A stretch of DNA of 64,000 nucleotides from a virus (IMGVR_UViG_3300027791_000007:64001-128000); one strand, 5' to 3'; numbered from the stretch's first letter, positions 2,536-62,411 are shown. The notes: generated by a model from the sequence alone, not told the origin. A program made the numbers and translations.

Positions 2536-3607
2536 TCTCTAAACCATAATCGCTTCTATTCATTATCATATACATTTTTTCTGCAAGTAAATTACCGACA
2601 ACATAATCTTGTAAATAATGAAATCCAGCTAAAACTCTACCATATCCACATTCTTTTGCAGCTTCAATGATACCTTTTCTATGTTCTGGAAATTTATTAG
2701 ATATATACAATGCAACTAACATAGATTGTGTTGCATGTCCACTAGGATAACTCTTAGTTTTATTAGTTGTACTTGCCATTGGTTTAATTTCGTTATCATG
2801 ATCAAAAGGTCTTTTTAAGTCAAAAATTTCTTTAAAATATTTGATTGTTGGTCTTGCCTGCTGAACTATATCTATCATCTCATTTTCGTGAAATGACATA
2901 CCGTGTTCAAGTAAATATTGCTCAATCGCATAATAAGTCTGTTCATCATGGTTAGCAATAGACTCTTCATCTTTGTCTGTTCTTTTTGCCATAAGGGATT
3001 TTAATTTTAATACTTCCTCATCCAGATCAGTGTTGGGTTCTGGTAATGTTATTTGAAGGTGTAAGTCTTTTGGAAAAAACTCCATTGCTTCATTAAAACT
3101 TTCAAACTTTAACTTAGGCCCAGAGGTTTTAAAATCTTTCTTTCTCATTACTGTCTTTGCAACAAGTTCTAACTCTCCACCCTTTAGGTTTAATACAAAC
3201 GGCATATTGATATCAGTTTTCATATCATTGATAACTGCTTCTGCATCAGGCCCTAGTTGTGCGATAGTCTTACCAAATTTCTTGTGTGACTGTTTGAATA
3301 GTCTAGTAAGTTCTGCTGGTGTGATTTGTTTATTGTTTCTCGCATCATTTACTCTGTCTAAGAAATGTCGTGTAAACTCTACGTCAATACCAAGAGATGC
3401 AAATATTCTATCTGCATACTTCTCTATTTGATCTAAATCGGATTTCTTTAATGGTTTTTCTGATTGTGCATTTAAATTAATGATTGGAACATAGGTATCT
3501 AACCCAGGCCCAAGGCTACCATCTTTATAAGATACACCAGACAAAGACTCTTTAATATGTGTTCTAAAATCACGAGGCATTGTAAATCCTCTACTGTTAC
3601 TTTGCAA
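2522..3607 (-). CDS. Two-domain protein: N-terminal 'FTRHFLDR' module plus C-terminal PAP2-family phosphatase (probable start ATG 3580)
   Basis: All three PAP2 motifs present: K-x6-RP (KEIFDLKRP), YPSGH, R-x5-H-x3-D (RVLAGFHYLQD). Confidence 0.75.
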   Translation of the reverse strand: MQSNSRGFTMPRDFRTHIKESLSGVSYKDGSLGPGLDTYVPIINLNAQSEKPLKKSDLDQIEKYADRIFASLGIDVEFTRHFLDRVNDARNNKQITPAELTRLFKQSHKKFGKTIAQLGPDAEAVINDMKTDINMPFVLNLKGGELELVAKTVMRKKDFKTSGPKLKFESFNEAMEFFPKDLHLQITLPEPNTDLDEEVLKLKSLMAKRTDKDEESIANHDEQTYYAIEQYLLEHGMSFHENEMIDIVQQARPTIKYFKEIFDLKRPFDHDNEIKPMASTTNKTKSYPSGHATQSMLVALYISNKFPEHRKGIIEAAKECGYGRVLAGFHYLQDYVVGNLLAEKMYMIMNRSDYGLENDKK

Positions 3608-4103
3608 CTTTAAAAGCGATATTTTGTAGTTTCAGAAAATCACCTTTCTTACCGTTCATCATAGGTTTTAACTTTGCTTTATTAACATCATTAACCTTAT
3701 CATAAACTTGTGTAATTACGGATGCTGTCATCAAGTCGCATTTCATAGTTCCATCTTTGAACTTTAAATTTTTAGCCTGTTTACTCTTTACGATTGATCT
3801 CATCACATCAAGATTTTCTTCTGCAAGAAGAGACTCGATACCAAACTCTTGAACACTTGCAATAACACTACTTTGAAAAGAACCCTCTCTCATGGATTTC
3901 TTTTCTCTTTTCATTTGCAATTGTTTTGCATGAGCTCTATATGCTTTTGTTCTTGCATCTAAAAGACTTTTCTTTTTCTTTTTCTTCATCATAGCATCAG
4001 GCGGCATAGCAACTCCACCAGCAGCATTACTGTTAGTTGGAGCATCTTCTTCTATGTTGTTGCCTGTGTATGGATCTACTTCTGTATATATTTTATTTGG
4101 CAT
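3597..4103 (-). CDS. Hypothetical, probable prohead core/internal protein
   Basis: Charged; IEE/LAEE sites resembling gp21 cleavage motifs; in late-gene block. Confidence 0.5.
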   Translation of the reverse strand: MPNKIYTEVDPYTGNNIEEDAPTNSNAAGGVAMPPDAMMKKKKKKSLLDARTKAYRAHAKQLQMKREKKSMREGSFQSSVIASVQEFGIESLLAEENLDVMRSIVKSKQAKNLKFKDGTMKCDLMTASVITQVYDKVNDVNKAKLKPMMNGKKGDFLKLQNIAFKVAK

Positions 4104-4710
4104 TTTTAATATCCTCTACACTTACATATATTTTTTCTTGGGTTCTAATATGAATAACTGGAAATATCTCAACACCCAAAACTGTATCAATAGGTGGTTC
4201 GTCATCATATGTGATAACCTTATCACCTTTTTTAGCAGTTAATTCTTCTTCTTCTTTATTTAGTATATCGTTGATTAGCACATATTCACCTTTGGGTAAA
4301 ACCTCACCAAAACCGGCAATCTCTTCTGAAATTGTATCGTCCAACTGTATTTCGTTCTCATGTAAAAATTTGATAAACTCTTTTTCAAACATATCTTTAT
4401 CATCAACAGATTCTTTGAATGTATCTTTTAGTAGAAACAACGCTGCAGCATATGTACCAACCTTACTTCTAAGTCCAGGCACTTTGTTAAAAATCTTTTT
4501 GATGTTGAATACAAGTTTGTGTAGAATAGTATATGCATTTTTTTCTTGTGATGAAACCAAGGGAACTTGTGGTTTCTTTGCTTTATCTTGCATAATACGA
4601 TTGCCCTTTTCGTCAATGATACCCAACTTATAAGCATCAGTGTCCTCAAAGGGTGTTGTTAGTAACCGTAAAAATCTATACGTTACAAATAGGTCTATCG
4701 CTCTTCCCAT
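4093..4710 (-). CDS. Conserved T4-like marine phage hypothetical protein
   Basis: N-terminus YRFLRLLTTPFEDTDAYKLGIIDEKG recognisable from T4-like phages; translationally coupled to neighbours. Confidence 0.65.
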   Translation of the reverse strand: MGRAIDLFVTYRFLRLLTTPFEDTDAYKLGIIDEKGNRIMQDKAKKPQVPLVSSQEKNAYTILHKLVFNIKKIFNKVPGLRSKVGTYAAALFLLKDTFKESVDDKDMFEKEFIKFLHENEIQLDDTISEEIAGFGEVLPKGEYVLINDILNKEEEELTAKKGDKVITYDDEPPIDTVLGVEIFPVIHIRTQEKIYVSVEDIKNAK

Positions 4711-5072
4711 TATAGTTCCTCTAGTTTTTCTAGAACAAAAGAATCTGTTTCTATAATCTTTAGTTCATCTTCTCTAATTATATTTAGGTAAATACAAAAC
4801 GCCTTTAGTGCAGATAAGTGTTCGTGTTGTATTTTGTGTATAAGAAGAGTTGCACAGGCTTCTGGGCCAAATACATTTGATAAGACTATAATGTGATTGA
4901 TTAGTAGACGTTCTTTTAAAATACCACTTTCATAGTATTTTCTTAGAAGCCTTTTAATATATTTAAATCTTTTCAGATCGTCTTGAAATTCTTTTTCACC
5001 TTCGCAATGTGGGTTGTTGTAATGCCTTATGGCATACATCATTACATTTTCAGGCGTTATCTTTTCATACAT
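4710..5072 (-). CDS. Conserved T4-like marine phage hypothetical protein
   Basis: YNNPHC...EFQDDLKRFKYIKRLL...LKERLLINHII motif typical of cyanophage/pelagiphage core hypotheticals. Confidence 0.7.
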   Translation of the reverse strand: MYEKITPENVMMYAIRHYNNPHCEGEKEFQDDLKRFKYIKRLLRKYYESGILKERLLINHIIVLSNVFGPEACATLLIHKIQHEHLSALKAFCIYLNIIREDELKIIETDSFVLEKLEEL

Positions 5073-5075
5073 GTA

Positions 5076-5507
5076 CTATACAATGGAAGCGTATAGTTTA
5101 CATGAATTATTTCTTCCTACCATTTCATAATCCACTTTCAACTTCAATCCACCCTCTACCATGTGAGAAATCCCATCATCGTCTAAAAACTCATCAAATG
5201 GTGTATTCTCATCTTTACCAAATCTTCCACCCATCTTATTAAGTTGAAGTTCAAATGAACCACTCTGTTCACTCATACTTGGTGTTGCTTCCATACCAAG
5301 ACCAACAGCTGCTAATCTATTTCTTAAAGTATTAAGAGCGTGTTCTGGTAAAATAAATTCTTGATTTCCTATCAGTCCAACAAATGCATTAAGTCTTTTT
5401 ACGACTTCTGGATTTCCTAGTTCGGCAGGATTAATATCTAAATCCACAGCAACATTATGGTGCATATTATTGTGAACTTCTTTTATGTGTTGTTTAAAAC
5501 TTTTCAT
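5076..5507 (-). CDS. Hypothetical with capsid-targeting-like N-terminus (MKSFKQHIKE)
   Basis: ORF track; N-terminus resembles T4 internal-protein CTS MKTYQEFIAE. Confidence 0.6.
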   Translation of the reverse strand: MKSFKQHIKEVHNNMHHNVAVDLDINPAELGNPEVVKRLNAFVGLIGNQEFILPEHALNTLRNRLAAVGLGMEATPSMSEQSGSFELQLNKMGGRFGKDENTPFDEFLDDDGISHMVEGGLKLKVDYEMVGRNNSCKLYASIV

Positions 5508-5635
5508 GAGTTACAACCTTCGCAGTTACAGTTATCATCACATTGTCCTTTACAAGCACACGAACTATCGCACCCACAAGGATTAGGAGTTTCATCTGAA
5601 CCATCGTATATTTCTTTCAACTCTTTTCGTTCCAT
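5504..5635 (-). CDS. 43-aa Cys-rich metallothionein-like peptide MERKELKEIYDGSDETPNPCGCDSSCACKGQCDDNCNCEGCNS
   Basis: Translated by hand (below ORF-track cutoff); SD AAGGAG upstream; TGA overlaps next ATG (ATGA); 8 Cys in CxC/CxxC patterns. Confidence 0.75.
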   Translation of the reverse strand: MERKELKEIYDGSDETPNPCGCDSSCACKGQCDDNCNCEGCNS

Positions 5636-5654
5636 TTTTAACTCCTTTAATAGT

Positions 5655-5687
5655 ATATAGTAGGGGAGCAGAACCCCCCTACTATAT
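5655..5687 (-). terminator. Stem-loop (12-bp inverted repeat ATATAGTAGGGG/CCCCTACTATAT), likely terminator or processing hairpin
   Basis: Perfect inverted repeat between two small ORFs. Confidence 0.6.
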
Positions 5688-5693
5688 TTAATA

Positions 5694-5813
5694 TTACTTC
5701 TTTGCAGCCCTCTTGACTACCTTTTTAACTGCCTGAACTGCTTTAGGAGCAGTTGTACGAGCTACTGGAGGCACCATCATTTTGCCTGCTTTTGACATGA
5801 ATCTTAATCCCAT
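5694..5813 (-). CDS. 39-aa basic Lys/Ala/Val-rich peptide MGLRFMSKAGKMMVPPVARTTAPKAVQAVKKVVKRAAKK
   Basis: Translated by hand; SD AAGGAGA upstream; flanked by hairpins. Confidence 0.7.
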   Translation of the reverse strand: MGLRFMSKAGKMMVPPVARTTAPKAVQAVKKVVKRAAKK

Positions 5814-5841
5814 TGTAATCTCCTTTATCTAATATGGGAAA

Positions 5842-5861
5842 TGGGGAGGCGAACCCCCCCA
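5842..5861 (-). terminator. G/C-rich hairpin with UUCG loop
   Basis: Minus strand TGGGGGGG-TTCG-CCTCCCCA just after stop of 5872-6345; weak U tail. Confidence 0.55.
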
Positions 5862-5871
5862 AATCTAATTA

Positions 5872-6345
5872 TTAGTTAGCGATATCAACAAGTCCACTAT
5901 CAGCACCAGCATCATGCTGTCCGATAACGGCCCATGAAGAACCAGTCCACATTAGTATAACAGCATCACCGTCATCAACAAAGTTGATGTCTGCATAACC
6001 CAATGGGTCAGCAGGTGTACATACAGATGTACCACCATCAGTGTCGTTAATGATAACTTTCAACTGACCTACGATAGTTCCATCAGCAATAGTAGTAGCG
6101 TTAGAACCAGCAGTCTGAAGCAAAGTAACAGCAGTTGTTACAGACAATGCAGCCTGTGTACCATCAGAAATATCTTCTACAGAATTTGAAAATCCGATAA
6201 AAGAAGGAAGGTTGTTAATAAAGTTAGTTACACTAACCTTTTTGTTAATAGGTGTTCCAGTTGGATCATCTACAACGTGTAGCAAGTCTGCGCCTGCGAT
6301 GCCTGTTGAAAGGTCAGTCAGTGCAGTAATTTTCTTATCAGCCAT
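5872..6345 (-). CDS. Probable virion structural (fibre/decoration-like) protein
   Basis: MADKKITALT N-terminus common in phage fibre proteins; T/G/D/A-rich; strong SD. Confidence 0.55.
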   Translation of the reverse strand: MADKKITALTDLSTGIAGADLLHVVDDPTGTPINKKVSVTNFINNLPSFIGFSNSVEDISDGTQAALSVTTAVTLLQTAGSNATTIADGTIVGQLKVIINDTDGGTSVCTPADPLGYADINFVDDGDAVILMWTGSSWAVIGQHDAGADSGLVDIAN

Positions 6346-6435
6346 TTTTATTCTCCTTAAATAGCGTTATTAAATACCTAGACAATTCTAGGAATATTAC
6401 TGTAGGTACACACTCGGCGTCCTACATCACCCATG

Positions 6436-6735
6436 TTATTCTTTTTTGGAGACTGTAGATAAATCTTTATCTATCGACTCTTGACTAACATCAATTATAT
6501 AACCGTCTAGAAGATCTTGGGTTACTTGTTTTGCACCAGTAAGTGCATTTATCAACCCAACATATTCTAATCTCTTCTTGTCATGCAAATCTAGTTGGGA
6601 TTTAACCTTTTCTAAATCTGCATCTAGTACCGTATCCTTTTGCAACAACTTGTTAAACAATGCAGCTGCTTTGGTGCCAGGCACTAGTACAATTTCTTCT
6701 CGTTCAGTGTTATCCACTCTCTGTTTCATTACCAT
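6436..6735 (-). CDS. Hypothetical coiled-coil protein
   Basis: ORF track; late promoter at 6763-6770. Confidence 0.6.
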   Translation of the reverse strand: MVMKQRVDNTEREEIVLVPGTKAAALFNKLLQKDTVLDADLEKVKSQLDLHDKKRLEYVGLINALTGAKQVTQDLLDGYIIDVSQESIDKDLSTVSKKE

Positions 6736-6762
6736 ATTATATTCACCTTTAATTTATAATAT

Positions 6763-6770
6763 TATTTATA
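6763..6770 (-). promoter_or_regulatory. T4-type late promoter TATAAATA
   Basis: Exact consensus, intergenic. Confidence 0.7.
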
Positions 6771-6798
6771 AGACTTTTTGGCCCTATTTTTTCACTTA

Positions 6799-7989
6799 TT
6801 ATGTAGTAGTAACTCCGTTTAGGATAGAACCAGTTCCACTTGTAGAACCTACTTGTGAGTGTAATACAATATCAGAAGTCTTATCTTCTGCAAGTATAGC
6901 ATCAAACTCATCAGCACTTGAACCGTTTGTAGCATCAAAGATGATTGTACCACTAGTATCTCTACCTTCTGTACCATCTTCAAGCAATCCAATTTTGACA
7001 GCAGTATCTTCACCAGTTCTTGTAATACCAGTAATATCTGTAGTTCCACTATCTCCTTGAACAACTAAGTCTAATCCCTCATCACACAAACTGTCGTGTC
7101 CATCAGCAGAGAAGTTTAGAACTATGTCGTTTGCAACTGTAACTGGTCTTGAAAGTGTGACACTTGTTGAACCATTTGTTGCAGTAACAGTTAATGAACC
7201 ATCTTGTGATAAGTCAGTTGAACCATTTTCGTCTGTCAATGGTGTTGCATTTGCCTGTCCGTAAACTTTCATACCTACTGCAATTGTACCAGAGTTACCA
7301 TCTAGAACCAAAGCAGTTGTTGCTGTTGTAATTGCACCATTTACCGTTCCAACAATAGCAGCAACGGAGTCAAGAACAATTCTACCAGCAGGAACAGCGT
7401 CAGTACCACCTTCTTGTCTTATTGCAAGGATAGATGTTCCATCTTCTTCTGTAGCATCAGCAGAACCGTTGAAAACGATTGCTTTTGTGTTAAATCCAAT
7501 AAAACCAGCAGCGGCCGCTTGTAGTGAACCTCTGAATGTAATTTGGTTTGTTCCAGAACCAGAGAGATATTGGGCAGCAATTGTGTTGTCCTCTACCATG
7601 TCTGTCGCACCAAGTCTATTTAATAGAATGTATGCTTTGTTTGTTACTGTTTGGTTCGCTGTTACAGCGGCACTTGTCATGTCTACTGCTTCATCGAATG
7701 TTAGTGTTATATCAAATGTTGCACTATCGGCATATATACCGTCTGTCCAATCAATTGAGCGTACCGTAGCCGAACCAGCAATTGCCGCAAGGTTTCTAAT
7801 GCATACTAGGATTTCTGGTTGAGCATCTTTATTGTCGTTACCAGAAGCCGCAAGGCCAGAGGCAAGCGCCCATCCACCACTTGTTGCAATGGCGTTTTGT
7901 CTCGAACCCATTGATCCAGAAGCATTATCGTCCTCAGGCAAGAATTTTGGTCGGTTAGCTGAACTTGTATTTGATCCCCATAAACCCAT
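6799..7989 (-). CDS. Probable virion structural/decoration protein
   Basis: MGLWG...RPK N-terminus seen in T4-like marine virion proteins; T/G/A/S-rich beta-type sequence; late promoter upstream. Confidence 0.6.
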   Translation of the reverse strand: MGLWGSNTSSANRPKFLPEDDNASGSMGSRQNAIATSGGWALASGLAASGNDNKDAQPEILVCIRNLAAIAGSATVRSIDWTDGIYADSATFDITLTFDEAVDMTSAAVTANQTVTNKAYILLNRLGATDMVEDNTIAAQYLSGSGTNQITFRGSLQAAAAGFIGFNTKAIVFNGSADATEEDGTSILAIRQEGGTDAVPAGRIVLDSVAAIVGTVNGAITTATTALVLDGNSGTIAVGMKVYGQANATPLTDENGSTDLSQDGSLTVTATNGSTSVTLSRPVTVANDIVLNFSADGHDSLCDEGLDLVVQGDSGTTDITGITRTGEDTAVKIGLLEDGTEGRDTSGTIIFDATNGSSADEFDAILAEDKTSDIVLHSQVGSTSGTGSILNGVTTT

Positions 7990-8024
7990 TTTAATCTCCT
8001 TTAGATCTTTAATCTATTTCCTTT

Positions 8025-8032
8025 TATTTATA
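8025..8032 (-). promoter_or_regulatory. T4-type late promoter TATAAATA
   Basis: Exact consensus upstream of 6799-7989. Confidence 0.75.
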
Positions 8033-8033
8033 A

Positions 8034-8546
8034 TTATCTATATCCCAAAGACTTCAATCTTGTAATAGTTTTATTGACATTCGTGTGATGAACCCCAATT
8101 CCACCTCTTTGTTCCCATTCCTTAATGTTCTTTATGTAATCATCAACTAAAACGGATGGTTTCCCATCAATTGTGGCATATGCCTGTTTCTGATCTCTTT
8201 GTACCAAATGAATATTACCTCGTTTAACATTCGTATTTTTGGCCAACCATTTCATCTTACCTGGCCTAGAATTTGAATCCTTCTTTGAAAAAGCAGAAAG
8301 AATATGTGCATCATATTTAGCAATAAATTGCCATAACTTTTTAGAACCAGGCATCCATTCTAACTCTGCCCAGAAACCTTTAGTATCACTAATCTTCTGC
8401 CATCGTTCTCCCTTATCAGCAGTAACAAATGAACCCCCAGCAGCTTTATCAGCACCAGCCATAAAGTTACATAGAACTTGATCCATGTCACAATATATAA
8501 TAGGCAAATCTTCTTTTGCCGTCATTAACTCCGAAAGAGTTTTCAT
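8034..8546 (-). CDS. HAD-superfamily 5'(3')-deoxyribonucleotidase-like protein
   Basis: IYCDMDQVL (motif I DxD), ILSA (II), K (III), LVDD..KNI.EW (IV). Confidence 0.8.
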   Translation of the reverse strand: MKTLSELMTAKEDLPIIYCDMDQVLCNFMAGADKAAGGSFVTADKGERWQKISDTKGFWAELEWMPGSKKLWQFIAKYDAHILSAFSKKDSNSRPGKMKWLAKNTNVKRGNIHLVQRDQKQAYATIDGKPSVLVDDYIKNIKEWEQRGGIGVHHTNVNKTITRLKSLGYR

Positions 8547-8549
8547 ACT

Positions 8550-9074
8550 TTAATCCTTTATTTTAGGATCAATTTCAACCTTTGCAGCTGGTTCACCAGT
8601 TGCGGCTTTTGAACCTTTTGCAAAATCTTTTTTCTCTTTCATCTTCTTTTTGTTCTCATCTTCAAAAGGATTCTTACCCTCTTGTCCACTCCAAACTTTC
8701 TTTAGAGCTTCCCTCATAGATAATGACTTACCATTCATTGCAGAGAGTTGTTCTTCAACTTCTTTTTTAGATTTTTCATCTACACCAAGTGGAGCCTTTT
8801 TTTCTTCTACTGGTTTAGCAGAGGAAAACGACCACTCTTTAAGTTTACCAATTAGTTGATTAACTGCTTCAGATTTCTCACCAGTGTAGTTCTTATCAAT
8901 ATAATCAAAAAACTTTTTCTTTGCTTTATCATCTTTTAATTCAGCAGGCGATTTAATATTAAACTTTTTCAATGCACCGTTAAAGAATTTTTGGTACTCT
9001 GCTTTAGTTCCGTCTGTTAGACTAGCCTTAATCGCCTCTTCAAGACTACCCTCTTTTTTATCAAAATATGCCAT
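8550..9074 (-). CDS. Highly charged hypothetical, probable prohead core/internal protein
   Basis: K/E-rich with SLEE, LKE, MKE sites. Confidence 0.55.
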   Translation of the reverse strand: MAYFDKKEGSLEEAIKASLTDGTKAEYQKFFNGALKKFNIKSPAELKDDKAKKKFFDYIDKNYTGEKSEAVNQLIGKLKEWSFSSAKPVEEKKAPLGVDEKSKKEVEEQLSAMNGKSLSMREALKKVWSGQEGKNPFEDENKKKMKEKKDFAKGSKAATGEPAAKVEIDPKIKD

Positions 9075-9083
9075 TTTAGTCTC

Positions 9084-10433: not shown

Positions 10434-10446
10434 TCCTTTATAGTAT

Positions 10447-10454
10447 TATTTATA
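10447..10454 (-). promoter_or_regulatory. T4-type late promoter TATAAATA
   Basis: Exact consensus, intergenic. Confidence 0.75.
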
Positions 10455-10457
10455 AAA

Positions 10458-12149: not shown

Positions 12150-12156
12150 ATTCCTA

Positions 12157-52879: not shown

Positions 52880-52888
52880 TTTATTCTC

Positions 52889-54955: not shown

Positions 54956-54996
54956 TATATTACTCCAAATTTCCTACTACTATTTAGTAGGTTTCA

Positions 54997-55527
54997 TTAT
55001 AAGATATTTGAGGGTTCAAAATGTTGATATCTCCAAGTAACCTCAAATGTTTCAATTTCTGTTGCTTCAGCAGTTGTTAAGTCAATCTGTGAAACAGTCA
55101 GTGGAAACGCATTTCTAAAAATGTAAGATTTAAGGATTGTATCATCTCTGTCTAGTTGTTCAACTGTTAAATCAGTTTGATAACCAGCAGGGGTAATTAA
55201 TCCAGTAGCATCGGCATAATTGTTAATACCGTTCTGCCATCTTTCCATTGCGTTTCTAATCATAAAGTCAGTATCATTATAAAAAGTAGTTGTCCAAGTT
55301 TCTGGAGCAGGTCTATCACCAGCCATATAAATGGTTCTACCTCTGAATGGTACAGCAATCTCACCTAAAGTACTTGCAGGCAAGTTAGTTGCAGTTACCA
55401 AGAATGAAGTTCTACGAACATCCAATCCAGTAGTAATTTCAGAAGGTGGAGTTAACGTCACTTTAAATTGGTTGGCACGAGCACCACCACCGATAAGATT
55501 TGCTTTGAAATCGTCTATTTTAGCCAT
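54997..55527 (-). CDS. gp19: Tail tube protein gp19
   Basis: GGARANQF, VPFRGR...AGDR, WTTTFYND.DF.IR.A.E.W. Confidence 0.95.
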   Translation of the reverse strand: MAKIDDFKANLIGGGARANQFKVTLTPPSEITTGLDVRRTSFLVTATNLPASTLGEIAVPFRGRTIYMAGDRPAPETWTTTFYNDTDFMIRNAMERWQNGINNYADATGLITPAGYQTDLTVEQLDRDDTILKSYIFRNAFPLTVSQIDLTTAEATEIETFEVTWRYQHFEPSNIL

Positions 55528-55529
55528 GA

Positions 55530-57704
55530 TTAACCTCCTACCTCTGTAAATGCGACACCAGTTCTTACGGCGACAAAGTTAAGAGTAATAAAGTTGATAC
55601 TTCTGTTAGGTTTAACATAGATATCTGCAACAAACTCATTTCTGTCAATTACTTGTCCAGTATTATTAGTACCGTCAGCAACAACCTTAAAGTCTGTTAT
55701 TCCTCTTCTTCCTTGTACATCTCTAAGGAATGGTTCTACTAAGTTTCTAAATTGTGCCCTCGTAAATTCATCGTTGAACTCAAAGAGTTGGAACTTAGCA
55801 GCAGTTGCGATTGCTTTTTCTAATACCAAGAACAACCTTCTAACATTAATTCTGTCGAAAGCACTTGGTTTTGATAATGCAGTCTTATCACCGAATAGTA
55901 CAACACCTTGGCCTGGGAAGTTAACAACTGGATTAATCCTTGCACGATACAATATATCTCTTTGAGATTTACTTGGATTGTAAGCAAGTTTTACAGCGCC
56001 TCTAACATTTCCTCTATTGAAACCGCCTGGTGAAAACCAAGGATCAGCAACATTGTCTGTGTTTGCACATAGTCCAGCAGTATCTCCGTTCAATGGAACG
56101 AATCTAAACTGGTCGTTGTATTTGTCATACATGTACTTGTAACCACTGTCAAACACCATGTAAGATGATGATGGGCAGTTATCAAATGCAGATTTAACAT
56201 TATCAGTTTGTGTTACCGAATCTGCAATACCAACTACAGCATTTCTGTGGGGTGATACAAATCCTACACAATCTTTTCTAAACTCAACCAAATCTGTAAT
56301 CATAGTAACATGTGTGTCCATACCAGTTTCAGTATCAGCAGCGATACTTGACGGCCCACCTAATACTAGGTTGATGTCAATACTCTCTACATCTTTGAAC
56401 TTATCGTATGCAAGTGCAATTTCACCAGCAGATACACTAAAATCATCTGCACCACCGTTAAGTTGTGATTCATATGCACTAGTAACAGCAGTGTATGCAC
56501 CACCTTCTTCTAGTAGAATATCACTACCAGCATTAGTTGATGAACCATCTGTACCGTCTAAGATAACATTGTCACCTTCGTTAGTACCAGAAGCATCTGT
56601 TCCGTTCAATAATATTTCGTTACCAGTTTGTAAATCTGTTCCCCAGTTAGTACCAGATGAAGTAATTTCTTCAGCTTTACTTGTTGGGATATCAGAAGTT
56701 ACTGGATGATCCATCCAATAAATCAAAGTTGATTGTCTGTAGACTACATCTGGATAATAGTTACTCTGTCCTTGAGCAGTTTTTCCATTTACGTTTTTAG
56801 AAAGACTTGCAAAAATTTCAAGCACACCTAGAGTTCTTTGTCCTGCTGTATCACTATCAAAACCAGCAATAGTTCCAGTTGTGTCGAAAACTACAATGTG
56901 TAGTTCATCGCCTGTACCTCTACCATTTTGAGTTGCCCAAGCAGATGTGCCTGGGGCACCATCAAACAAGTCATAAAATTTCCACCTACGTCTGATAAAT
57001 GTACCAGTAGAAAGTGCGGCAACCAAACCAGTTCCGTTTACGTTGTCAAGTTCTCTGATTGTTGCAGTGTTGTTAGTAATATCAATTGCAGTCACTTCAT
57101 ATTGTTTATCTTCATGTCCACTTACTTGTGTAGTAAATGCAGAAGATGTGAAGAACGAAAGTATATCTCCAATATTAATTTCGTTATCTGCAACATCAAC
57201 ATCGTCTAGTGTAATTGAAGTTGCACCAGAAGCAGCCGGTGCAGCGACTTTATTTGCAGTAGTTAAATTTTGTTCGTAAGCACTTGCACTAGGACATACA
57301 GAAACAGCAATACTATTTCCTTCTGATCCAGAAGTTCTTGATGCCCACAAACCAACAGTTCCTTGCCCTTCAGCAAAAGATGTTGTATAGTGGTCAGTTG
57401 ATCTTATTAGTAGTCCACTCGCCTTTGATGTTGCGTTTAAAACACCAGATTCGATACGAACCACTCTTAGAGCATCTGAATATTGTAAAAAGTTTGCGGC
57501 TGTAAACCAAGTTTCGTAGTTACTAGAATTAGGTTTTCCAAAGATTTTTAATAGTTCTTCTTCCGATCCAATTGCAGTAACCTCACCGACAGGCCCCTTT
57601 TCAAATGGCCCAGCAATTGCACCAATAGATGTTGCAACAGCAGGAACTACATTTGTTAAGTCGACCTCTTTAACTTGGACGCCAGGTGATACTAGAAATG
57701 CCAT
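55530..57704 (-). CDS. gp18: Tail sheath protein gp18
   Basis: SPGVQVKEVDLT, PWFSPGG.NRG, FGDKT, FDRINVRRLF, FEFNDEFTR. Confidence 0.98.
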   Translation of the reverse strand: MAFLVSPGVQVKEVDLTNVVPAVATSIGAIAGPFEKGPVGEVTAIGSEEELLKIFGKPNSSNYETWFTAANFLQYSDALRVVRIESGVLNATSKASGLLIRSTDHYTTSFAEGQGTVGLWASRTSGSEGNSIAVSVCPSASAYEQNLTTANKVAAPAASGATSITLDDVDVADNEINIGDILSFFTSSAFTTQVSGHEDKQYEVTAIDITNNTATIRELDNVNGTGLVAALSTGTFIRRRWKFYDLFDGAPGTSAWATQNGRGTGDELHIVVFDTTGTIAGFDSDTAGQRTLGVLEIFASLSKNVNGKTAQGQSNYYPDVVYRQSTLIYWMDHPVTSDIPTSKAEEITSSGTNWGTDLQTGNEILLNGTDASGTNEGDNVILDGTDGSSTNAGSDILLEEGGAYTAVTSAYESQLNGGADDFSVSAGEIALAYDKFKDVESIDINLVLGGPSSIAADTETGMDTHVTMITDLVEFRKDCVGFVSPHRNAVVGIADSVTQTDNVKSAFDNCPSSSYMVFDSGYKYMYDKYNDQFRFVPLNGDTAGLCANTDNVADPWFSPGGFNRGNVRGAVKLAYNPSKSQRDILYRARINPVVNFPGQGVVLFGDKTALSKPSAFDRINVRRLFLVLEKAIATAAKFQLFEFNDEFTRAQFRNLVEPFLRDVQGRRGITDFKVVADGTNNTGQVIDRNEFVADIYVKPNRSINFITLNFVAVRTGVAFTEVGG

Positions 57705-57766
57705 GATTTACTCCTTGTCCTTTAAGTTATGCCCGTTTAGCATTGTTCTTACTTAATCATTACTTT

Positions 57767-57774
57767 TATTTATA
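57767..57774 (-). promoter_or_regulatory. T4-type late promoter TATAAATA (gp18)
   Basis: Exact consensus. Confidence 0.8.
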
Positions 57775-57817
57775 ATTTACCGTTTCTTAAAAACCCACAT
57801 TTATATGTATTTAATCA

Positions 57818-57825
57818 TATAAATA
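57818..57825 (+). promoter_or_regulatory. T4-type late promoter TATAAATA on plus strand
   Basis: Exact consensus 5 nt before the ATG of the only plus-strand gene. Confidence 0.7.
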
Positions 57826-57830
57826 GTAGT

Positions 57831-58130
57831 ATGACAACACACTATGAAAAATACAAAGACACTATTAAAAAGGTTGCAAGAAGAAACTATCGCAAACGAG
57901 GCGTTTGGTTAAACAATATTCTAGCAAATCAGTCTTGTACACACTGTGGTGAATCAGAAACAGTCTGTCTCAAATTCTATCCTCACGATAATGTAATTCG
58001 CTCTCAAACCAAAAGAAAAGGTATGAACGATGATAGCAGAGAACAAATACAAGAATTGATTGATAACTCTAAGGTTGTTTGTTCTAACTGTTGGATTAAA
58101 CTAGATAGTGATTTGATAGAATTTCTCTAA
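57831..58130 (+). CDS. HNH-like Zn-binding protein (degenerate HNH endonuclease)
   Basis: CTHCGE...CLKFYPHD...VVCSNC; fills gap between minus-strand genes. Confidence 0.7.
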   Translation: MTTHYEKYKDTIKKVARRNYRKRGVWLNNILANQSCTHCGESETVCLKFYPHDNVIRSQTKRKGMNDDSREQIQELIDNSKVVCSNCWIKLDSDLIEFL

Positions 58131-58678
58131 TCAATATTTCCAGCAACCATTACTCTGTCATGTTCACATTCTTGTGGTGGTACACAATGCATGTTATATT
58201 GATATTTATCATTTGCAAGTATTCCATTCCAAAAAATTAAAGTATCTTCTTCTGGTATAATTTCTAAATTTCTTTGTTCAAATACTAAGGGTGAACACTT
58301 AGGACAACATTCTGCATAGTAAGTCCATGCCCATACAACACTATGTATATGTGCTGTCGCTTCATCACCCCTCTGATATATTGCACCCCAACAATCTTTT
58401 GTTTCCCATCTTCTAGCATGTCCAGTAAAATAGTTTAATACATCTATTACTGAGTCTGATATTTCCCCAAAGATTGGATTAAAATGATTCATATGCCAAC
58501 TAGTTCTGTGTTCAGCGACTATATTGGTAGACTTGCCTGGATGATTTTTTAAATTAAATGCATCATCTTTTATTATACTTTTGATTAGAAGTCTTTTATC
58601 CGTAGGTATATTTAACTTAACTTTACCAATTGGATGAATAGTCTCTAACAATTGGAGCCCACTTTGTTCCATATTCAT
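58127..58678 (-). CDS. Putative 2OG-Fe(II) oxygenase (HxH type)
   Basis: CWGAIY..GD.A..HIH, WTYY, LIFW...HCVPPQ...RVMVAGN. Confidence 0.75.
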   Translation of the reverse strand: MNMEQSGLQLLETIHPIGKVKLNIPTDKRLLIKSIIKDDAFNLKNHPGKSTNIVAEHRTSWHMNHFNPIFGEISDSVIDVLNYFTGHARRWETKDCWGAIYQRGDEATAHIHSVVWAWTYYAECCPKCSPLVFEQRNLEIIPEEDTLIFWNGILANDKYQYNMHCVPPQECEHDRVMVAGNID

Positions 58679-60260
58679 CTACCATCTCCCCAATATTTTC
58701 ATCTTCTAAACCATCTACTATAAATCCGAAAGGAGCCATATCTTGTTCTATTTGGTTTTTATTTTCTTGTAACATGCGTTCTCGCATATCCATGTTAGTT
58801 AATTCTTTAAAATACGTTTGGTCAATCGACCATGCAAACATAAACAAACATGCAACCAAATCATCGTTACATCCATCGTCTGCTTGAAAAGACGATCCTT
58901 TTACTATGAATGTTGATAATTCGTTTATCATATCATAATCTTGTACTATCATTTTATTATCTTCGATCATCTGTTTTAGATTAGAACAACCAATCTTCTT
59001 AACTGCTTTAGTTGTTCTTACCCCCAACTGTGCCTTACCACCACTAAATCCACCACCCATGATTTGTCCAGCACGACCTCTCATAGATGCCATAACTAGA
59101 TTATCATATTCTAAATCAAACTGTAATGTATTAGCAACTTGTTCACCGATATCATTTACCTCTACCAAAACAAATGCTTGATTATATGCTCTTGCAACAT
59201 CATATATTTTTTGTGGGAACAATAGTGGTTTTATTTCGTTATCTCTGTACTTCGCACATATTTTATATGGTATCTGTGTTACGTCAAAAACAACAAAGGC
59301 AGAGTAATCACTCTCTACTCCTCTTGCAACGTCCACCGTCATAAAATAAGTATGATCTTTTTCTGGTGGATAATAAACATCCAAACCTTTATTAGATTGT
59401 ATCGGAGTCTTATATGCAAGTTCTCTTAGTTTGCGTGGCGAAATAAGTGTATCAATAGAACCTAAAAACTCACACTCAAACTCTGTGTTAAACTGTTGTT
59501 CACTTGTATTCGCAATAGTTTCTTTCTTCCATTTCTCATCTCGGCCTGGTACTTCTGACCAATGAACCTCAATAGGTATATAACTATTTCGTTTTTCTTC
59601 TGCTTCTGTCCATATCTTATAGAACATGTTCATACCGTGTGGTGTGGAAACAATCATAACCTTTGTTGTTTTACCAGAAGAAATGGTAGGATACACAGAA
59701 CTAAAAAATTGTTCTGCTACGTTGCTGGGTACATATGCAAACTCATCCAAGAAAATAATATTATAAGAACCACCACGAACGGCAGATGCTGAAGTAGATG
59801 ACGCCAAAATTTTAGAACCGTTTTCAAGTTCAAGACTCCCTTTGTTCCAAGACATAACTCCTTGTTGTAACCACTTGGGAAGATGTTCATACGCAAGTTG
59901 CAGTCTCCCCAATAAATCTCTCGCAGTTGCGGCCTTGTTTGCAAGTATAGCAATATTAACTGCTGGATTAAATAAAGCATAGTGTAACAAATACGACACC
60001 ATTGTTGTGGACTTACCAGACTGTCTAGGTAATTTACATATAGTAAAACGATTACTGTGGAATGTACCAACCATTTCTTTTTGAAAAGGATACATCGTAA
60101 ATGGTACTAAACCTTCATCAAGATTAATAATCTTCACATAGTTTTGAATAAAGTATAGTGGGTCTTCCATACAACTAGCATATTCTTGCAGTTCTTTCTT
60201 AGTCCAGTTCTGCTGTACATTGGCCTTTTTAAGATTTGGATTACCTAGATAAGTTTCCAT
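58623..60260 (-). CDS. gp17: Terminase large subunit gp17
   Basis: YLGNPNLK, PRQSGKST, IFLDEFA, VSTPHG, VDVARG..SDYS, DDLV. Confidence 0.98.
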   Translation of the reverse strand: METYLGNPNLKKANVQQNWTKKELQEYASCMEDPLYFIQNYVKIINLDEGLVPFTMYPFQKEMVGTFHSNRFTICKLPRQSGKSTTMVSYLLHYALFNPAVNIAILANKAATARDLLGRLQLAYEHLPKWLQQGVMSWNKGSLELENGSKILASSTSASAVRGGSYNIIFLDEFAYVPSNVAEQFFSSVYPTISSGKTTKVMIVSTPHGMNMFYKIWTEAEEKRNSYIPIEVHWSEVPGRDEKWKKETIANTSEQQFNTEFECEFLGSIDTLISPRKLRELAYKTPIQSNKGLDVYYPPEKDHTYFMTVDVARGVESDYSAFVVFDVTQIPYKICAKYRDNEIKPLLFPQKIYDVARAYNQAFVLVEVNDIGEQVANTLQFDLEYDNLVMASMRGRAGQIMGGGFSGGKAQLGVRTTKAVKKIGCSNLKQMIEDNKMIVQDYDMINELSTFIVKGSSFQADDGCNDDLVACLFMFAWSIDQTYFKELTNMDMRERMLQENKNQIEQDMAPFGFIVDGLEDENIGEMVDEYGTKWAPIVRDYSSNW

Positions 60261-61218
60261 AAAATTTATTTTCTCTTTCTATTCTTTCTTCTAATATATC
60301 AGTTGTTACTCTTTGGTAATAATTACTCTCTTTGCACCATTCATTATATCTATCAACACATTCAGAAAAATTCTCTATCTTATTTCTTTTATCAAGTAAA
60401 GTATTCATTTTTAATGGAACACCCCACAAGAGTCTTTTCTGTTTTACTAGACTACTTATGTATTCTTCAAACCTTATAGATTTTAACAGTGAACCTAAAC
60501 CAATATTATCAACACCAATATTACTAAGATTGTATGTTGTCTTATTATATTCATCAAAACTTATACCTTTCATTTCATGTTCTATTCCAGTTAATTTCCA
60601 AAGCATATGGTCTGTATTGTATGCAAATTCATTATAATCAACTTCAATAGCTGTAGGAAAATACTTATCTACCCACCACTTATATCTAAGATACATTTTT
60701 AATTTTTTATTAAATAAATTTAAATCAACTTTGTAGTTTTCATCTTTGACATTATTTCTATGTTCGTCTACACTAAAAACATTTCTAATCTTATTAGTAT
60801 CCCTAATACCCCAACTTAAAGCGTATTCAAATGGATCTCTTGTACAATAAAAAATCTTTTGATAATGTCTGTTTAAAAAAGGATACCACTCTCTTGTACC
60901 ACCAGCTTTTTTACCAGCCATTACAGCTCTTTCTTTCATCACATAATGTGCTAATCTAGAAACTAAAGAACTTCCAGTATTGTTTTCTAAAAGTTGTATA
61001 ACTCTTTCTAGTGGTTGTCCATATCGTATATATGTGTAATCAGGGCCTCTAGGCACTTTGTGTACAATTTTTACAATATTATTATTGTATAATTCTAATC
61101 CTGCAGCTATTTCATGTGTATTAGTATAATCTAATCCAGCACTATTTAAAAATACTGTAAGACTTCTTTGTAAGTAGGTTGAACCTACTCCATCTGGAGT
61201 CAATATCAAATAATTCAT
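60241..61218 (-). CDS. Putative sulfotransferase-like P-loop protein
   Basis: N-terminal TPDGVGSTYL (5'-PSB-like), CTRDPFEYALSW (3'-PB-like RxP...S), later YNEF. Confidence 0.5.
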   Translation of the reverse strand: MNYLILTPDGVGSTYLQRSLTVFLNSAGLDYTNTHEIAAGLELYNNNIVKIVHKVPRGPDYTYIRYGQPLERVIQLLENNTGSSLVSRLAHYVMKERAVMAGKKAGGTREWYPFLNRHYQKIFYCTRDPFEYALSWGIRDTNKIRNVFSVDEHRNNVKDENYKVDLNLFNKKLKMYLRYKWWVDKYFPTAIEVDYNEFAYNTDHMLWKLTGIEHEMKGISFDEYNKTTYNLSNIGVDNIGLGSLLKSIRFEEYISSLVKQKRLLWGVPLKMNTLLDKRNKIENFSECVDRYNEWCKESNYYQRVTTDILEERIERENKFYGNLSR

Positions 61219-61221
61219 GCA

Positions 61222-61614
61222 TCACTTTCCCTTTAACATCTTTTGTAATTCAGCAGTTGAACCAACAAACAATGCATTAGTAACATTCTTAGGAGCATTA
61301 CTGGGTACTTCTTTAAGTTTTCTCATCTTCTCTTGTAAGTCGCCCAACTTCTCTGTTACTTCTGCTACTTGTTTTATAAGATTACCAGCAACTTCATATG
61401 CTCTTGGATGATCAGATTCCTTTGCAAGTTCTAATATACCATCAATTGCATGAGAACCCTTTTCTACAAGATTATAAAAGTTCTCTCGTTGATACTTGTA
61501 ATCATTGTCAACGTCACCCCAATCTTCTCTTTGACTTTTCTTTGGTGTAACATCTATAAGGTCTTTACCTTCTTCGATAGGTATACCCAGAGATTCTGCT
61601 ATTTCAATACTCAT
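61222..61614 (-). CDS. gp16: Terminase small subunit gp16
   Basis: DYKYQRENFY.LVEKG, HPRAYEVAG.LIK, NALFVGSTAELQK. Confidence 0.93.
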   Translation of the reverse strand: MSIEIAESLGIPIEEGKDLIDVTPKKSQREDWGDVDNDYKYQRENFYNLVEKGSHAIDGILELAKESDHPRAYEVAGNLIKQVAEVTEKLGDLQEKMRKLKEVPSNAPKNVTNALFVGSTAELQKMLKGK

Positions 61615-61616
61615 AA

Positions 61617-62411
61617 CTAACTACTAGGTTCGCCGTCCTCAAAGAATGAGGTCGTTTCATTAAATCCAAAATCATCATCATCTGCACTTGCAGTTGCTGG
61701 TGCTGGGGTAACACTATATTTCTGTTGTCTAGTTGGTGTATTCTCTGGTAAGTCAGTATACTGGTCAACTGTTGCAGTTTTGATAACTGCCTGTGACGTA
61801 ACTGGGCCATATAAGTAAAATTTACATGTGAAAGATAAGTTATAGATAACTGCCCTTCTCTCTGCAAAGTCTCCTTGATAACTATCCTCGTAACTGATAT
61901 CGTTTAGAACAATAGGTACATCTCTTTTGATTCCCATATCAACCATATCATTGATTGTCAATGTGTAGTCTGGTTGAAAGTATGGTAAAATTTGTTCTAC
62001 GATTTGTAGTGCATCGTCTGATTGTTTTGCCATAATGTATAGTGTAAAATTCAAATTATATGGAACAGGCATATATTGCATATCCATTCTATTTGACTTA
62101 TCATCACTACCACTATCTTTTACTCTTTTGAATTTCTGTACACGATTTAATTTTCGTGTGGGATCATAAGTCATTCCAGTAATTTCAAATCCAATTCTAG
62201 GTAAAGTAATTGCAACCTTGGATGCTAAACTTGGGTCTTGATTAAGTCTAGATAAAAACTTTTGTTGTGGGCCATATGCCAATGGCACCTTCATTGATTG
62301 AGTCACTTTTCCGGCATTGTCTTTTCTAACAATACTAATATTATTAAATAATGAACCGAAAGAGACTACCACTTTTCGCATACTTTCGTGGTAAAATTGT
62401 TGTCCTAACAT
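61617..62411 (-). CDS. gp15: Tail sheath stabiliser gp15
   Basis: FYHE..RK.VV.FG.LFN, VPLAYGP, LPRIGFE, EQILPYFQP. Confidence 0.96.
   Translation of the reverse strand: MLGQQFYHESMRKVVVSFGSLFNNISIVRKDNAGKVTQSMKVPLAYGPQQKFLSRLNQDPSLASKVAITLPRIGFEITGMTYDPTRKLNRVQKFKRVKDSGSDDKSNRMDMQYMPVPYNLNFTLYIMAKQSDDALQIVEQILPYFQPDYTLTINDMVDMGIKRDVPIVLNDISYEDSYQGDFAERRAVIYNLSFTCKFYLYGPVTSQAVIKTATVDQYTDLPENTPTRQQKYSVTPAPATASADDDDFGFNETTSFFEDGEPSS

Follow-up and report, generated by a model that had tools for sequence, protein, structure and literature searches.

The genome of this marine T4-like phage encodes, between the gp43 DNA polymerase and the UvsX recombinase, a number of enzymes of DNA-modification type (a TET-associated glycosyltransferase, a putative β-glucosyltransferase-like protein, Mom, a ParB-like protein and a GNAT), which raises the question of whether the virion DNA is marked, in which sequence context, and by which gene product. 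The DNA analysed (the window) is a stretch of 64,000 nucleotides and forms part of a complete genome of 148 kb. A sequence-only reading of the window had proposed that the phage modifies C in GpC, that restriction sites overlapping a GpC are thereby kept and the remainder purged, and that this footprint would predict the specificity of the glycosyltransferase cluster.

Survival of restriction-type words depends on GpC

Word counts were compared with shuffles conserving amino acids and dinucleotide counts; for the window alone, 150 synonymous-codon shuffles were run and expected values are given as pairs (dinucleotide-preserving null/simple null). Copies preceded by G or followed by C are termed flanked.

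1..64000, no strand: genome-wide footprint from word counts against shuffles, including the range 3111-62315 of the sequence-only reading
36704..36708, no strand: the one unflanked CCWGG of the window (C-CCAGG-A); 1 bp farther out stands a GpC, within GGCC-CAGG

Exact counts in the window were 0 for GGWCC, 39 for GGSCC, 7 for CCGG, 30 for CCWGG and 0 for CCSGG. Unflanked CCWGG occurred once (20.7/26.6 expected; the lowest count in any shuffle was 15), the single exception being the site at 36704 already singled out in the sequence-only reading, and flanked CCWGG 29 times (15.7/10.9 expected). The seven CCGG stood exactly where that reading had placed them and all were flanked (10.4/10.2 expected), with no unflanked copy (8.9/14.8 expected). 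Across the 148-kb genome, flanked and unflanked CCWGG numbered 65 (28–35 expected) and 3 (46–56 expected), and flanked and unflanked CCGG 15 (22–26 expected) and 0 (19–40 expected). CCSGG was found once in the genome and ACCGGT not at all; the CCGG rule, taken by itself, could come from avoiding CCSGG plus WCCGGW. Target words are depleted on both strands against a null preserving protein and codon usage, and the footprint is real and stronger than had been claimed.

The avoidance of GGWCC was also borne out: none was present in the window (18.7/31.5 expected) and 2 in the genome (39–64 expected). Glycine codons genome-wide are GGT 1692, GGA 850, GGG 188 and GGC 234, yet before proline they are GGG 23, GGC 30 and GGT 1, and all 26 Gly-Pro pairs in window genes use GGG (14) or GGC (12), never GGT or GGA. 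The loss of GGWCC with GGSCC kept needs no GpC explanation: ordinary avoidance of AvaII-type sites would produce it, and almost all relatives share it. A group of words that cannot be overlapped by a GpC (GGWCC, GGGAC, GAATTC, AACGTT, TACGTA, TTCGAA and GGTACC) is absent.

The strongest signal, which the sequence-only reading had overlooked, comes from the asymmetric word CAGG/CCTG, depleted on both strands. In the genome, HCAGGD was observed 12 times against 234 expected, GCAGGD 66 against 91 and CAGGC 187 against 86. All 12 HCAGGD exceptions have a GpC 1–2 bp away, so that each of the 265 CAGG sites has a GpC no more than 2 bp off; about 198 sites lacking one would be expected. Further words obey the same rule (genome, both strands, observed/expected):

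CTGCAG: shielded 36/36, unshielded 0/31
CTTAAG: shielded 4/3.5, unshielded 4/36
CCATGG: shielded 8/11, unshielded 4/27
CTGAAG: shielded 21/35, unshielded 2/40
CTSAG: shielded 44/79, unshielded 18/124
CACGT: shielded 9/13, unshielded 5/34
CCCG: shielded 27/18, unshielded 4/37

The rule was seen on both strands and in at least ten unrelated words starting with C or ending with G, while the non-depleted control words (CATG, CTGG, CACC, CCTT and others) showed no flank bias. A global test of GpC-containing against GpC-free 6 bp palindromes was not significant (p = 0.22). Nearly all surviving copies of restriction-type words are overlapped or directly adjoined by a GpC.

Context of the protecting GpC

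Protection is given only by G followed by C; a preceding C or a following G gives none. Words starting with CT or CC are protected by a TG flank. For words starting with CA, a TG flank creates TGCA, with GCA on either strand, and such copies number 10 against 50 expected, compared with 74 against 69 for a VG flank. The failure of TGCA contexts to protect implies, indirectly, a probable target of 5'-GC[C/T/G]-3' and not GCA. Some phage C5-methyltransferases (C5-MT43/88) have this very specificity, GpC[C/T/G] and not GpCA (PMC8256090).

The earlier statement that GGCC, GCGC, AGCT and TGCA are common fared unevenly: GGCC is enriched and TGCA slightly so, GCGC is neutral, and AGCT is depleted (74 in the window against 146–209 expected). 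Both strands of AGCT read GCT, and its 2–3 fold depletion runs contrary to a simple model in which every GpC protects; GCTA and GCTAG are depleted as well.

The gp43–UvsX slot

27063..29549, minus strand: gp43 DNA polymerase, upstream border of the variable modification slot
25954..27066, minus strand: DruA-like protein of 370 aa with a predicted GNAT (Mom-like) fold (profile, PHROG, predicted structure)
24608..25819, minus strand: ParB-like protein of 403 aa (motif and predicted structure)
23622..24608, minus strand: probable GT-B protein of 328 aa, T4 β-glucosyltransferase-like (Atlas feature search)
22858..23625, minus strand: TET-associated glycosyltransferase (TAGT) family (PF20691, 5e-15; phrog_842, 1.2e-20)
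22418..22861, minus strand: Endonuclease VII-like protein (PF02945; phrog_2633)
21615..22421, minus strand: Mom-family protein of 268 aa (PF25680, 7.7e-51; phrog_1384)
21203..21583, minus strand: MazG/PRA-PH-type nucleotide pyrophosphohydrolase (PF01503, 2e-22; phrog_671)
20194..21210, minus strand: UvsX recombinase, downstream border of the slot (PF00154; synteny)
19141..19689, minus strand: small 2OG-Fe(II) oxygenase of 182 aa (PF13640), not a member of the TET/JBP family

The DruA-like protein matches phrog_19197 and Pfam DruA (PF14236) at 22 bits, under the curated cut-off of 27. Its AF2 model (pLDDT 90.8) matched GNATs, malonyl-CoA decarboxylase and Mu Mom (8bv8_B) in Foldseek, and many of the closer among its more than 6000 metagenomic homologues bear a precomputed PF14236 label. 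It is abundant among marine T4-like phages. It shares its name with the bacterial Druantia protein DruA, which is not known to have been characterised. The 403-aa protein had no match in Pfam or PHROG; it has a GIY-YIG-like motif at the N-terminus (conserved YxY...YIG) and, in its centre and C-terminus, a predicted ParB/Noc/sulfiredoxin-like NTPase fold (AF2 pLDDT 81; Foldseek matches to Noc, ParB, KorB and Srx at probability 1.0), and is 28% identical to a 427-aa neighbour of the C5-methyltransferase of phage Melnitz. The 328-aa protein had no sequence match in Pfam, PDB or PHROG; the Atlas feature search places it beside PF09198 T4-Gluco-transf clusters (0.96–0.97), a lead by which it is probably a T4 β-glucosyltransferase-like GT-B enzyme. 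The TAGT protein is related to the T-even β-glucosyl-HMC α-glucosyltransferase. The Endonuclease VII-like gene is missing at the same position in three rule-keeping relatives (L003, L006 and L007), and the 2OG-Fe(II) oxygenase is conserved beside UvsX in Melnitz (45% identical). The Mom protein belongs firmly to its family (PF25680, 173 bits against a curated cut-off of 27). As determinant of the footprint Mom was rejected: a relative without it (L088) retains the CAGG rule, and loci with Mom 76–78% identical show no CAGG loss.

The rule in relatives with other slot contents

In relatives the same slot holds CmoY-CmoX-CmoA or a C5-methyltransferase. In Melnitz, where a C5-methyltransferase with SPPC but with Leu replacing Arg follows gp43, unshielded CCWGG, CTGCAG and CTTAAG are at 0/105, 0/60 and 0/38 (observed/expected). 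Others have ligase-CmoX-CmoA between gp43 and UvsX, with the SPPC motif plus GRMVP (as in the CmoX of L041 and L080), and in the CmoYXA-bearing contig G005 CTGGA copies with an H flank are at 1/35, those with a G flank at 22/13. The cultured relative HTVC008M, with the DruA-like gene only, obeys the rule as Melnitz does (CTTAAG shielded 8/4.6, unshielded 2/26). In contig G001 and loci L008-L019, of DruA type, CCWGG is flanked 51 times and unflanked once; where gp43 adjoins UvsX with no DruA or C5-methyltransferase gene within 10 kb, the counts are 24 and 0, on short contigs. The rule is therefore present with the glycosyltransferase cluster, with CmoY-CmoX-CmoA, with a C5-methyltransferase, with the DruA-like gene only and with an empty slot, and is not tied to the glycosyltransferase cluster.

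The set of avoided words differs among lineages: CAGG is avoided in the close lineage only, GATC, AGCT, GAATTC, CASTG and CTGGA vary, and G001 purges CASTG even with a G flank. P-HM1 served as control phage; the 100 kb of it that were examined contain no DruA-like or C5-methyltransferase gene. It has purged GCGC, GCSGC and every CCGG without a clean rescue, and its CCWGG flank bias is partial and of a different shape.

Search for a writer

No C5-methyltransferase was found in the complete 148-kb genome by PF00145, which did match control genomes, or by a local HMM built from three relatives. PF12851 gave no match to a TET/JBP (5mYOX) dioxygenase in this genome or in the control genomes; the 182-aa PF13640 protein is the sole oxygenase nearby. 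Searches of the complete genome for a ThyA-type hydroxymethylase, TGT/DpdA, an N4/N6 methylase and CmoX (SPPC motif with carboxymethyl-binding Arg) found none, nor did tblastn with the relatives' SAM-methyltransferase and Asn-synthase-like proteins find CmoA or the amide ligase. The proposed C5-methyltransferase/TET/glycosyltransferase pathway is therefore absent here, and with every known GpC writer missing from a complete genome the writer is hypothetical. The sequence-only interpretation is nonetheless supported in part: GpC overlap does decide word survival, and its fine structure matches C5-methyltransferase specificity.

Since the DruA-like GNAT-fold protein occupies the position of the relatives' C5-methyltransferase or CmoX, we tentatively consider it a candidate writer, of modest likelihood. 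It is conceivable, at a similar likelihood, that it represents a new kind of sequence-specific base-modifying enzyme that marks GC[C/T/G] without a C5-methyltransferase, replaces CmoX/C5-MT in the slot and provides the handle for the two T-even-like glycosyltransferases.

Proposed explanation and alternatives

Our working hypothesis, which we consider likely, is that the virion DNA bears a sequence-specific GpC mark that shields overlapped or abutting sites from host restriction. A mark at GpC steps in the context 5'-GC[C/T/G]-3' would block host nucleases at such sites; selection by many host restriction systems would have removed nearly all unshielded target words through synonymous codon choice, and copies forced by protein sequence (Pro-Gly as CCNGG) would have been re-flanked to touch a GpC. 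The implied restriction types would include CCWGG, CCGG, CVGG, CTGCAG, CTTAAG, CCATGG, CTSAG, CTGAAG, GGWCC, GGGAC, GAATTC and others. The DruA-like protein may act as the writer, the ParB-like protein as an accessory factor, and the two glycosyltransferases may elaborate the mark. The modified base could be cytosine, for which the chances appear even, the footprint being compatible with either the C or the G of GpC.

A first alternative, which we regard as unlikely, is that there is no modification and that the pattern sums host restriction specificities with flank-dependent recognition or cleavage, such as HCCWGGD, HCVGGD and CCSGG plus WCCGGW. The last pair reproduces the CCGG rule exactly, the loss of GGWCC requires no shield, P-HM1 has its partial CCWGG bias with no candidate writer in the 100 kb examined, and the complete genome here yielded no writer gene. 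At least ten unrelated words would, however, have to share the requirement of not G before and not C after; a GpC 1–2 bp outside the word also rescues; the TGCA exception belongs to the GpC context and not to the restriction word; and the same pattern occurs in genomes carrying a GC-specific writer from a family that has been characterised by experiment.

It is also distinctly unlikely that the pattern is a relic, left undecayed after an ancestral C5-methyltransferase or CmoX in the slot was replaced by a DruA/glycosyltransferase cluster of other function. Such a history would suit the many relatives whose slot holds CmoY-CmoX-CmoA or a C5-methyltransferase, the match between the inferred specificity and that of known C5-methyltransferases, and the lack of a writer in the complete genome. 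Against it, the DruA-type lineages are deeply diverged (DruA 50–93%, gp43 62–95% identical) and all keep the flank rule near 100% (CCWGG 29/0 and 51/1, flanked/unflanked); the CAGG rule, lineage-specific and therefore recent, obeys the same shield; and without a shield the unshielded sites would be lethal targets.

It is distinctly improbable, too, that the GpC mark comes from a host enzyme, or from a conserved phage gene that lies beyond the slot and has escaped recognition, instead of from the cluster in the window. The rule does accompany three different slot contents as well as an empty slot, but the three cultured rule-bearing phages infect unrelated hosts (SAR11, OM43 and Synechococcus), P-HM1 has no clean rule, and no bacterial GpC-specific methyltransferase is known (PMC8256090). 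Mutational or repair bias (methyl-cytosine deamination, very-short-patch repair) in place of restriction selection is very improbable: CpG is depleted overall (0.52 of expectation) and AGC/GCT-containing words mildly so, but GpC itself stands at 0.91 of expectation, the depleted words are classical type II/IIS targets and differ by lineage, and the depletion is 10–20 fold with shielded synonyms enriched in compensation.

Relation to known systems

Virulent phage genomes avoid restriction sites, commonly short palindromes. The loss seen here is of this kind, being strong, different between lineages, directed at type II/IIS words on both strands and achieved with synonymous codons; avoidance is, however, conditional on the flank, and GpC-touched words persist at or above expectation. 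We found no earlier report of flank-conditional restriction-site avoidance in the literature searched. T4 replaces every C by way of a dCMP hydroxymethylase and dCTPase (glucosyl-hydroxymethylcytosine); the glycosyltransferase families are homologous and the anti-restriction role would be alike, whereas this genome has no ThyA-type hydroxymethylase and the footprint indicates that most cytosines are unshielded. Mom of phage Mu acts on adenine in S-A-S-N-Y. It is a GNAT-fold adenine N6-carbamoylmethyltransferase (PDB 8bv8). The cluster has a true Mom-family gene and the DruA-like protein is predicted to share the GNAT/Mom fold, but the CCGG and GCC-type rescues contain no adenine and the presence of Mom is untied to the footprint.

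Synechococcus phage S-B43 has a 5-carboxymethylcytosine system made up of CmoA/CmoX/CmoY (Yang et al. 2025, PMC12783734), in which CmoX modifies GC and blocks HhaI in vitro and which ParB-domain proteins often adjoin. That system shares with ours a T4-like marine phage and a GC motif, and relatives carry its genes in the same gp43–UvsX slot; in contrast, none of the three is present here, and the slot holds the DruA-like GNAT, two glycosyltransferases and Mom. Phage hypermodification of GpC cytosines by C5-methyltransferase, TET (5mYOX) and glycosyltransferase has been described (Burke et al. 2021, PMC8256090; bioRxiv 10.1101/2023.12.21.572611). The apparent GC[C/T/G]-not-GCA context, the marine viral setting, the TAGT-family (PF20691) enzyme and the probable BGT-like glycosyltransferase are all features in common, whereas this complete genome has no C5-methyltransferase and no TET/JBP match. 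Burke et al. questioned whether a mark limited to GpC would be able to protect a genome (PMC8256090). In the explanation proposed here, the genome sequence itself would have adapted so that such a mark can protect it.

Methods

Genes were called by greedy choice of the longest ORF (186 ORFs, 92% genome coverage), and synonymous codons were shuffled within each gene in two ways, being permuted either freely (simple null) or only among positions followed by an identical base, so that every dinucleotide count stays unchanged (strict null). All 3- to 6-mers were ranked against the strict null in an unbiased scan, and other depleted words starting with C or ending with G were compared with expectation on both strands. 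Relatives comprised about 200 IMG/VR loci (L-numbers), fetched with TAGT, gp43 (DNA polymerase) and Mom as queries, together with three fuller contigs and four cultured genomes. A word overlapped or abutted by GpC is termed shielded or flanked, and the survival of mainly such copies is termed the flank rule.

Results

The window spans positions 64001-128000 of an IMG/VR viral contig 148,443 bp long. The contig (34.6% G+C, with nearly all genes on the minus strand) is from a T4-like marine myovirus. Its DNA polymerase shares 62% protein identity with the enzyme of Methylophilales phage Melnitz and 53-55% with the enzymes of cyanomyoviruses. CheckV judged it 84% complete and linear, a verdict overruled by the synteny of its ends: a single gene of ~2100 codons, uninterrupted in Melnitz (89582-95965), is split between them, one half in the first 1.76 kb and the other in the last 4.6 kb. 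The contig thus represents a complete, circularly permuted genome. The phage also encodes an alphaproteobacterial permuted tmRNA (Rfam RF01849, 126.6 bits; RF04321, 115 bits), which fits, and points to, a host of the SAR11 type; ARAGORN missed it in the same 20 kb.

Genome 46,474-46,754 (beyond the window; L117:6474-6754), minus strand, tmRNA (Rfam)

The sequence-only reading had proposed that restriction words in this DNA survive where a GpC touches them. Exact counts in the window agree with its tallies, namely no GGWCC, seven CCGG where it had placed them and, among 30 CCWGG, a single exception at 36704. GGSCC occurs 39 times, and all 26 Gly-Pro pairs in window genes do use GGC or GGG, while 86% of Gly codons genome-wide are GGT or GGA. 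Across the genome, GGWCC had z-scores of about -8 to -13 and unflanked CCWGG one of about -11. The absence of GGWCC, which had been offered as an argument for shielding, carries no weight either way, because GpC cannot overlap this word and Gly-Pro can always be recoded.

Observed and expected counts in the window
GGWCC: observed 0, expected 19-31
CCWGG, unflanked: observed 1, expected 21-27 (every shuffle at least 15)
CCWGG, flanked: observed 29, expected 11-16
CCGG, unflanked: observed 0, expected 9-15

In the unbiased scan the most depleted 5-mer was ACCTG/CAGGT (17 observed versus 174 expected) and the most enriched was CAGGC/GCCTG (187 versus 86). With a 5' A and no 3' C, CAGG was observed 0 times against 100 expected, with a 5' T once against 75 and with a 5' G 66 times against 91; with a 3' C it was enriched whatever the context. 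Twelve copies were apparent exceptions, and in 12 of 12 a GpC lies 1-2 bases from the word; overall, none of the 265 observed CAGG lacks a GpC within 2 bp, as opposed to about 198 of 412 expected. The depletion is seen on both strands, which indicates an effect at the level of DNA and rejects a translational cause. GGAGG, by contrast, is depleted across the window on the coding (minus) strand only (18 versus 65 expected; other strand, 12 versus 13.5), a separate signal that fits avoidance of a Shine-Dalgarno-like word. Since CCGG and CCCG/CGGG show the same flank behaviour as CAGG and CTGG does not, the core word is CVGG, of which CCWGG is largely a subset.

Shielding extends to further depleted words, and no flank effect was seen in about twenty non-depleted control words. 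Among 6-bp palindromes overall, the difference between those with and without GpC was not significant.

Depleted words with and without GpC shielding (observed/expected, both strands)
CTGCAG: shielded 36/36, unshielded 0/31
CTTAAG: shielded 4/3.5, unshielded 4/36
CCATGG: shielded 8/11, unshielded 4/27
CCTAGG: shielded 4/4, unshielded 0/7
CTGAAG: shielded 21/35, unshielded 2/40
CTSAG: shielded 44/79, unshielded 18/124
CACGT: shielded 9/13, unshielded 5/34

Words beyond the reach of GpC overlap were purged (observed versus expected): GGWCC (2 versus 39), GGGAC (0 versus 39), GAATTC (0 versus 24), AACGTT (0 versus 19), TACGTA (0 versus 15), TTCGAA (0 versus 13) and GGTACC (0 versus 10).

Not every GpC protects. 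The internal GpC of CTGCAG, in TGCA context, gives no protection, and TGCAGG (4 observed versus 39 expected) is depleted like unshielded CAGG, while AGCAGG and GGCAGG are retained. Pooled CA-starting words stood at 10/50 (observed/expected) with a TG flank versus 74/69 with a VG flank; where the word starts with CT or CC, a TG flank is no less protective than other flanks. The sole failing context is thus GCA read on both strands, which implies that the putative mark requires C, T or G after the GC. The phage enzymes C5-MT43 and C5-MT88 were measured to have this specificity, which lies near the GpC[C/T] of most enzymes in the same study (Burke et al., PMC8256090).

AGCT, which had been described as common, is in fact depleted two- to three-fold (0.33-0.49 of expectation, window and genome), as are GCTA/TAGC, GCTAG and the trinucleotide AGC/GCT, although GCT would be expected to be a shielded context. 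This might reflect a modification-dependent nuclease, or the mark may carry a cost at GCT.

Seven genes lie in the slot between gp43 and UvsX.

DruA-like protein: AF2 pLDDT 90.8, GNAT core, Foldseek matches including Mu Mom chain 8bv8_B
403-aa protein: N-terminal GIY-YIG-like motif, ParB/Noc/sulfiredoxin fold
328-aa protein: closest in feature space to T4 beta-glucosyltransferase clusters
TAGT-family glycosyltransferase: related to T-even beta-glucosyl-HMC alpha-glucosyltransferase
Endonuclease VII-like protein
Mom-family protein
MazG-type protein

Sequence searches of PDB, Pfam and PHROG with the 403-aa and 328-aa proteins were blank. The whole genome gave no match to PF00145, PF12851, PF00303, PF01702 or PF01555, nor to an HMM built from the C5-MTs of relatives. 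Beside UvsX (window 19141-20204), the 171-aa and 182-aa proteins both have, in addition to the 2OG-Fe(II) oxygenase match, weak PHROG matches labelled 'DNA endonuclease V', probably a mis-annotation borne by the family.

Among relatives the slot is a hot spot with four alternative contents, according to lineage.

DruA-type cluster
Asn-synthase-like ligase, C5-MT (SPPC and GRMVP motifs) and SAM-MT
A different C5-MT, e.g. in Melnitz
Nothing

The second set, found in many relatives, is the CmoY-CmoX-CmoA system, by which GC is marked with 5-carboxymethylcytosine and HhaI is blocked (Yang et al., 2025, PMC12783734). The slot C5-MTs of L041/L101 and L080/L102 carry the CmoX hallmarks SPPC and GRMVP; the Melnitz C5-MT (L103:4010-5227) also has SPPC, with a Leu where GRMVP has its Arg, and may therefore transfer a different group.

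The flank rule for CCWGG and CCGG holds across almost all slot contents, the only group without it being one of 31% G+C, in which there is no avoidance of CCWGG. The CAGG rule is limited to the close lineage of the phage, with a YCAGG version in Melnitz-like genomes.

Flanked/unflanked sites in relatives
TAGT loci without the CAGG rule: CCWGG 51/1, CCGG 7/0
DruA-only loci: CCWGG 29/0, no CCGG sites
Empty-slot loci: CCWGG 24/0

Other purged words vary within the clade and form a mosaic record of host restriction specificities. CASTG and GTCAC are absent from the fuller contig G001 (L105-L107), and GGATC and CAGGA are depleted in another, G005 (L108-L110); GATC is lacking from L008, L019, L035, L042 and many of L081-L100, and AGCT is near zero in the 31%-G+C group. 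Ribosomal protein S21 is encoded in a related phage contig (L088:9237-9521), and likewise in HTVC008M and Melnitz.

Cultured Melnitz (host OM43) is the cleanest case of the flank rule: unshielded CCWGG (0/105, observed/expected), CCGG (0/34), CTGCAG (0/60) and CTTAAG (0/38) are all missing, shielded copies of the four are at least at expectation, and TCAGG is kept solely as TCAGGC. Its gene at L104:19571-20380 (record 69571-70380), annotated as DUF465 of unknown function, encodes a Mom-family protein that shares 79% identity with its homologue in the window. Cultured HTVC008M (host Pelagibacter HTCC1062) has the DruA-like gene as the sole content of the slot and shows no avoidance of CCWGG or GGWCC; CTTAAG stands at 8/4.6 shielded versus 2/26 unshielded, and CCGG and CTGCAG follow the flank rule too. 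Two further genes of this phage lie outside the slot, some 11-15 kb upstream of gp43: a second, divergent DruA-like paralogue (gp106, L123:36116-37258) and gp104 (L123:34548-35555), the product of which is homologous (40%) to the 328-aa BGT-like protein. In G005, which bears CmoYXA, CTGGA preceded by G stands at 22/13 and CTGGA lacking a 5' G at 1/35; no rescue is seen for CA-starting words. In phage P-HM1 no DruA-like or C5-MT gene was found within the 100 kb examined; GCGC and GCSGC are purged, CCGG does not occur, and the CCWGG flank bias is partial and differently shaped.

Discussion

The simplest account of the footprint is that a GpC mark in GC[C/T/G] contexts would block restriction at any site it touches, and that selection would edit the genome until only GpC-touched sites remain. 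Three observations fall outside this account: relatives with an empty slot, AGCT depletion, and the CASTG of G001, which G flanks do not rescue.

The CmoX and C5-MT/TET systems of related phages represent the same biology of GpC marks, viewed here from genome sequence. The misfit with those systems is that this genome, complete and with the full footprint, carries no known writer, which points to an undescribed enzyme. To our knowledge, one GNAT is known to modify DNA bases. The DruA-like GNAT, which shares the fold of that protein and replaces the other systems by position, is the best candidate for the writer. Mom initially tracked the CAGG rule but was rejected on three counts: L088 keeps the rule with no Mom in the locus, loci with a Mom 76-78% identical show no loss of CAGG, and the Mom of Melnitz is located elsewhere in its genome. 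The glycosyltransferase cluster, the target of which the sequence-only reading had expected the footprint to predict, was rejected as determinant because L011-L019 have TAGT and no CAGG rule, and because the CCWGG rule is found without the cluster. A thymine dioxygenase route (PMC13229309) was rejected, as a flanking G/C adds no T and no TET/JBP gene was found, and a 7-deazaguanine route for want of a TGT/DpdA gene.

Two recent enzyme studies have described GpC-specific DNA marks in marine phages, and one group has considered it unlikely that a GpC-limited mark could protect the genome as a whole (bioRxiv 10.1101/2023.12.21.572611). The footprint answers that doubt with evolutionary evidence for a protective GpC mark: codon by codon, the genome has been rewritten so that unavoidable restriction words lie under GpC and avoidable ones are gone. 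The specificity of the putative mark can be read from genome sequence alone, the footprint predicts restriction specificities circulating in uncultured hosts, and the DruA-like candidate writer is testable in cultured HTVC008M.
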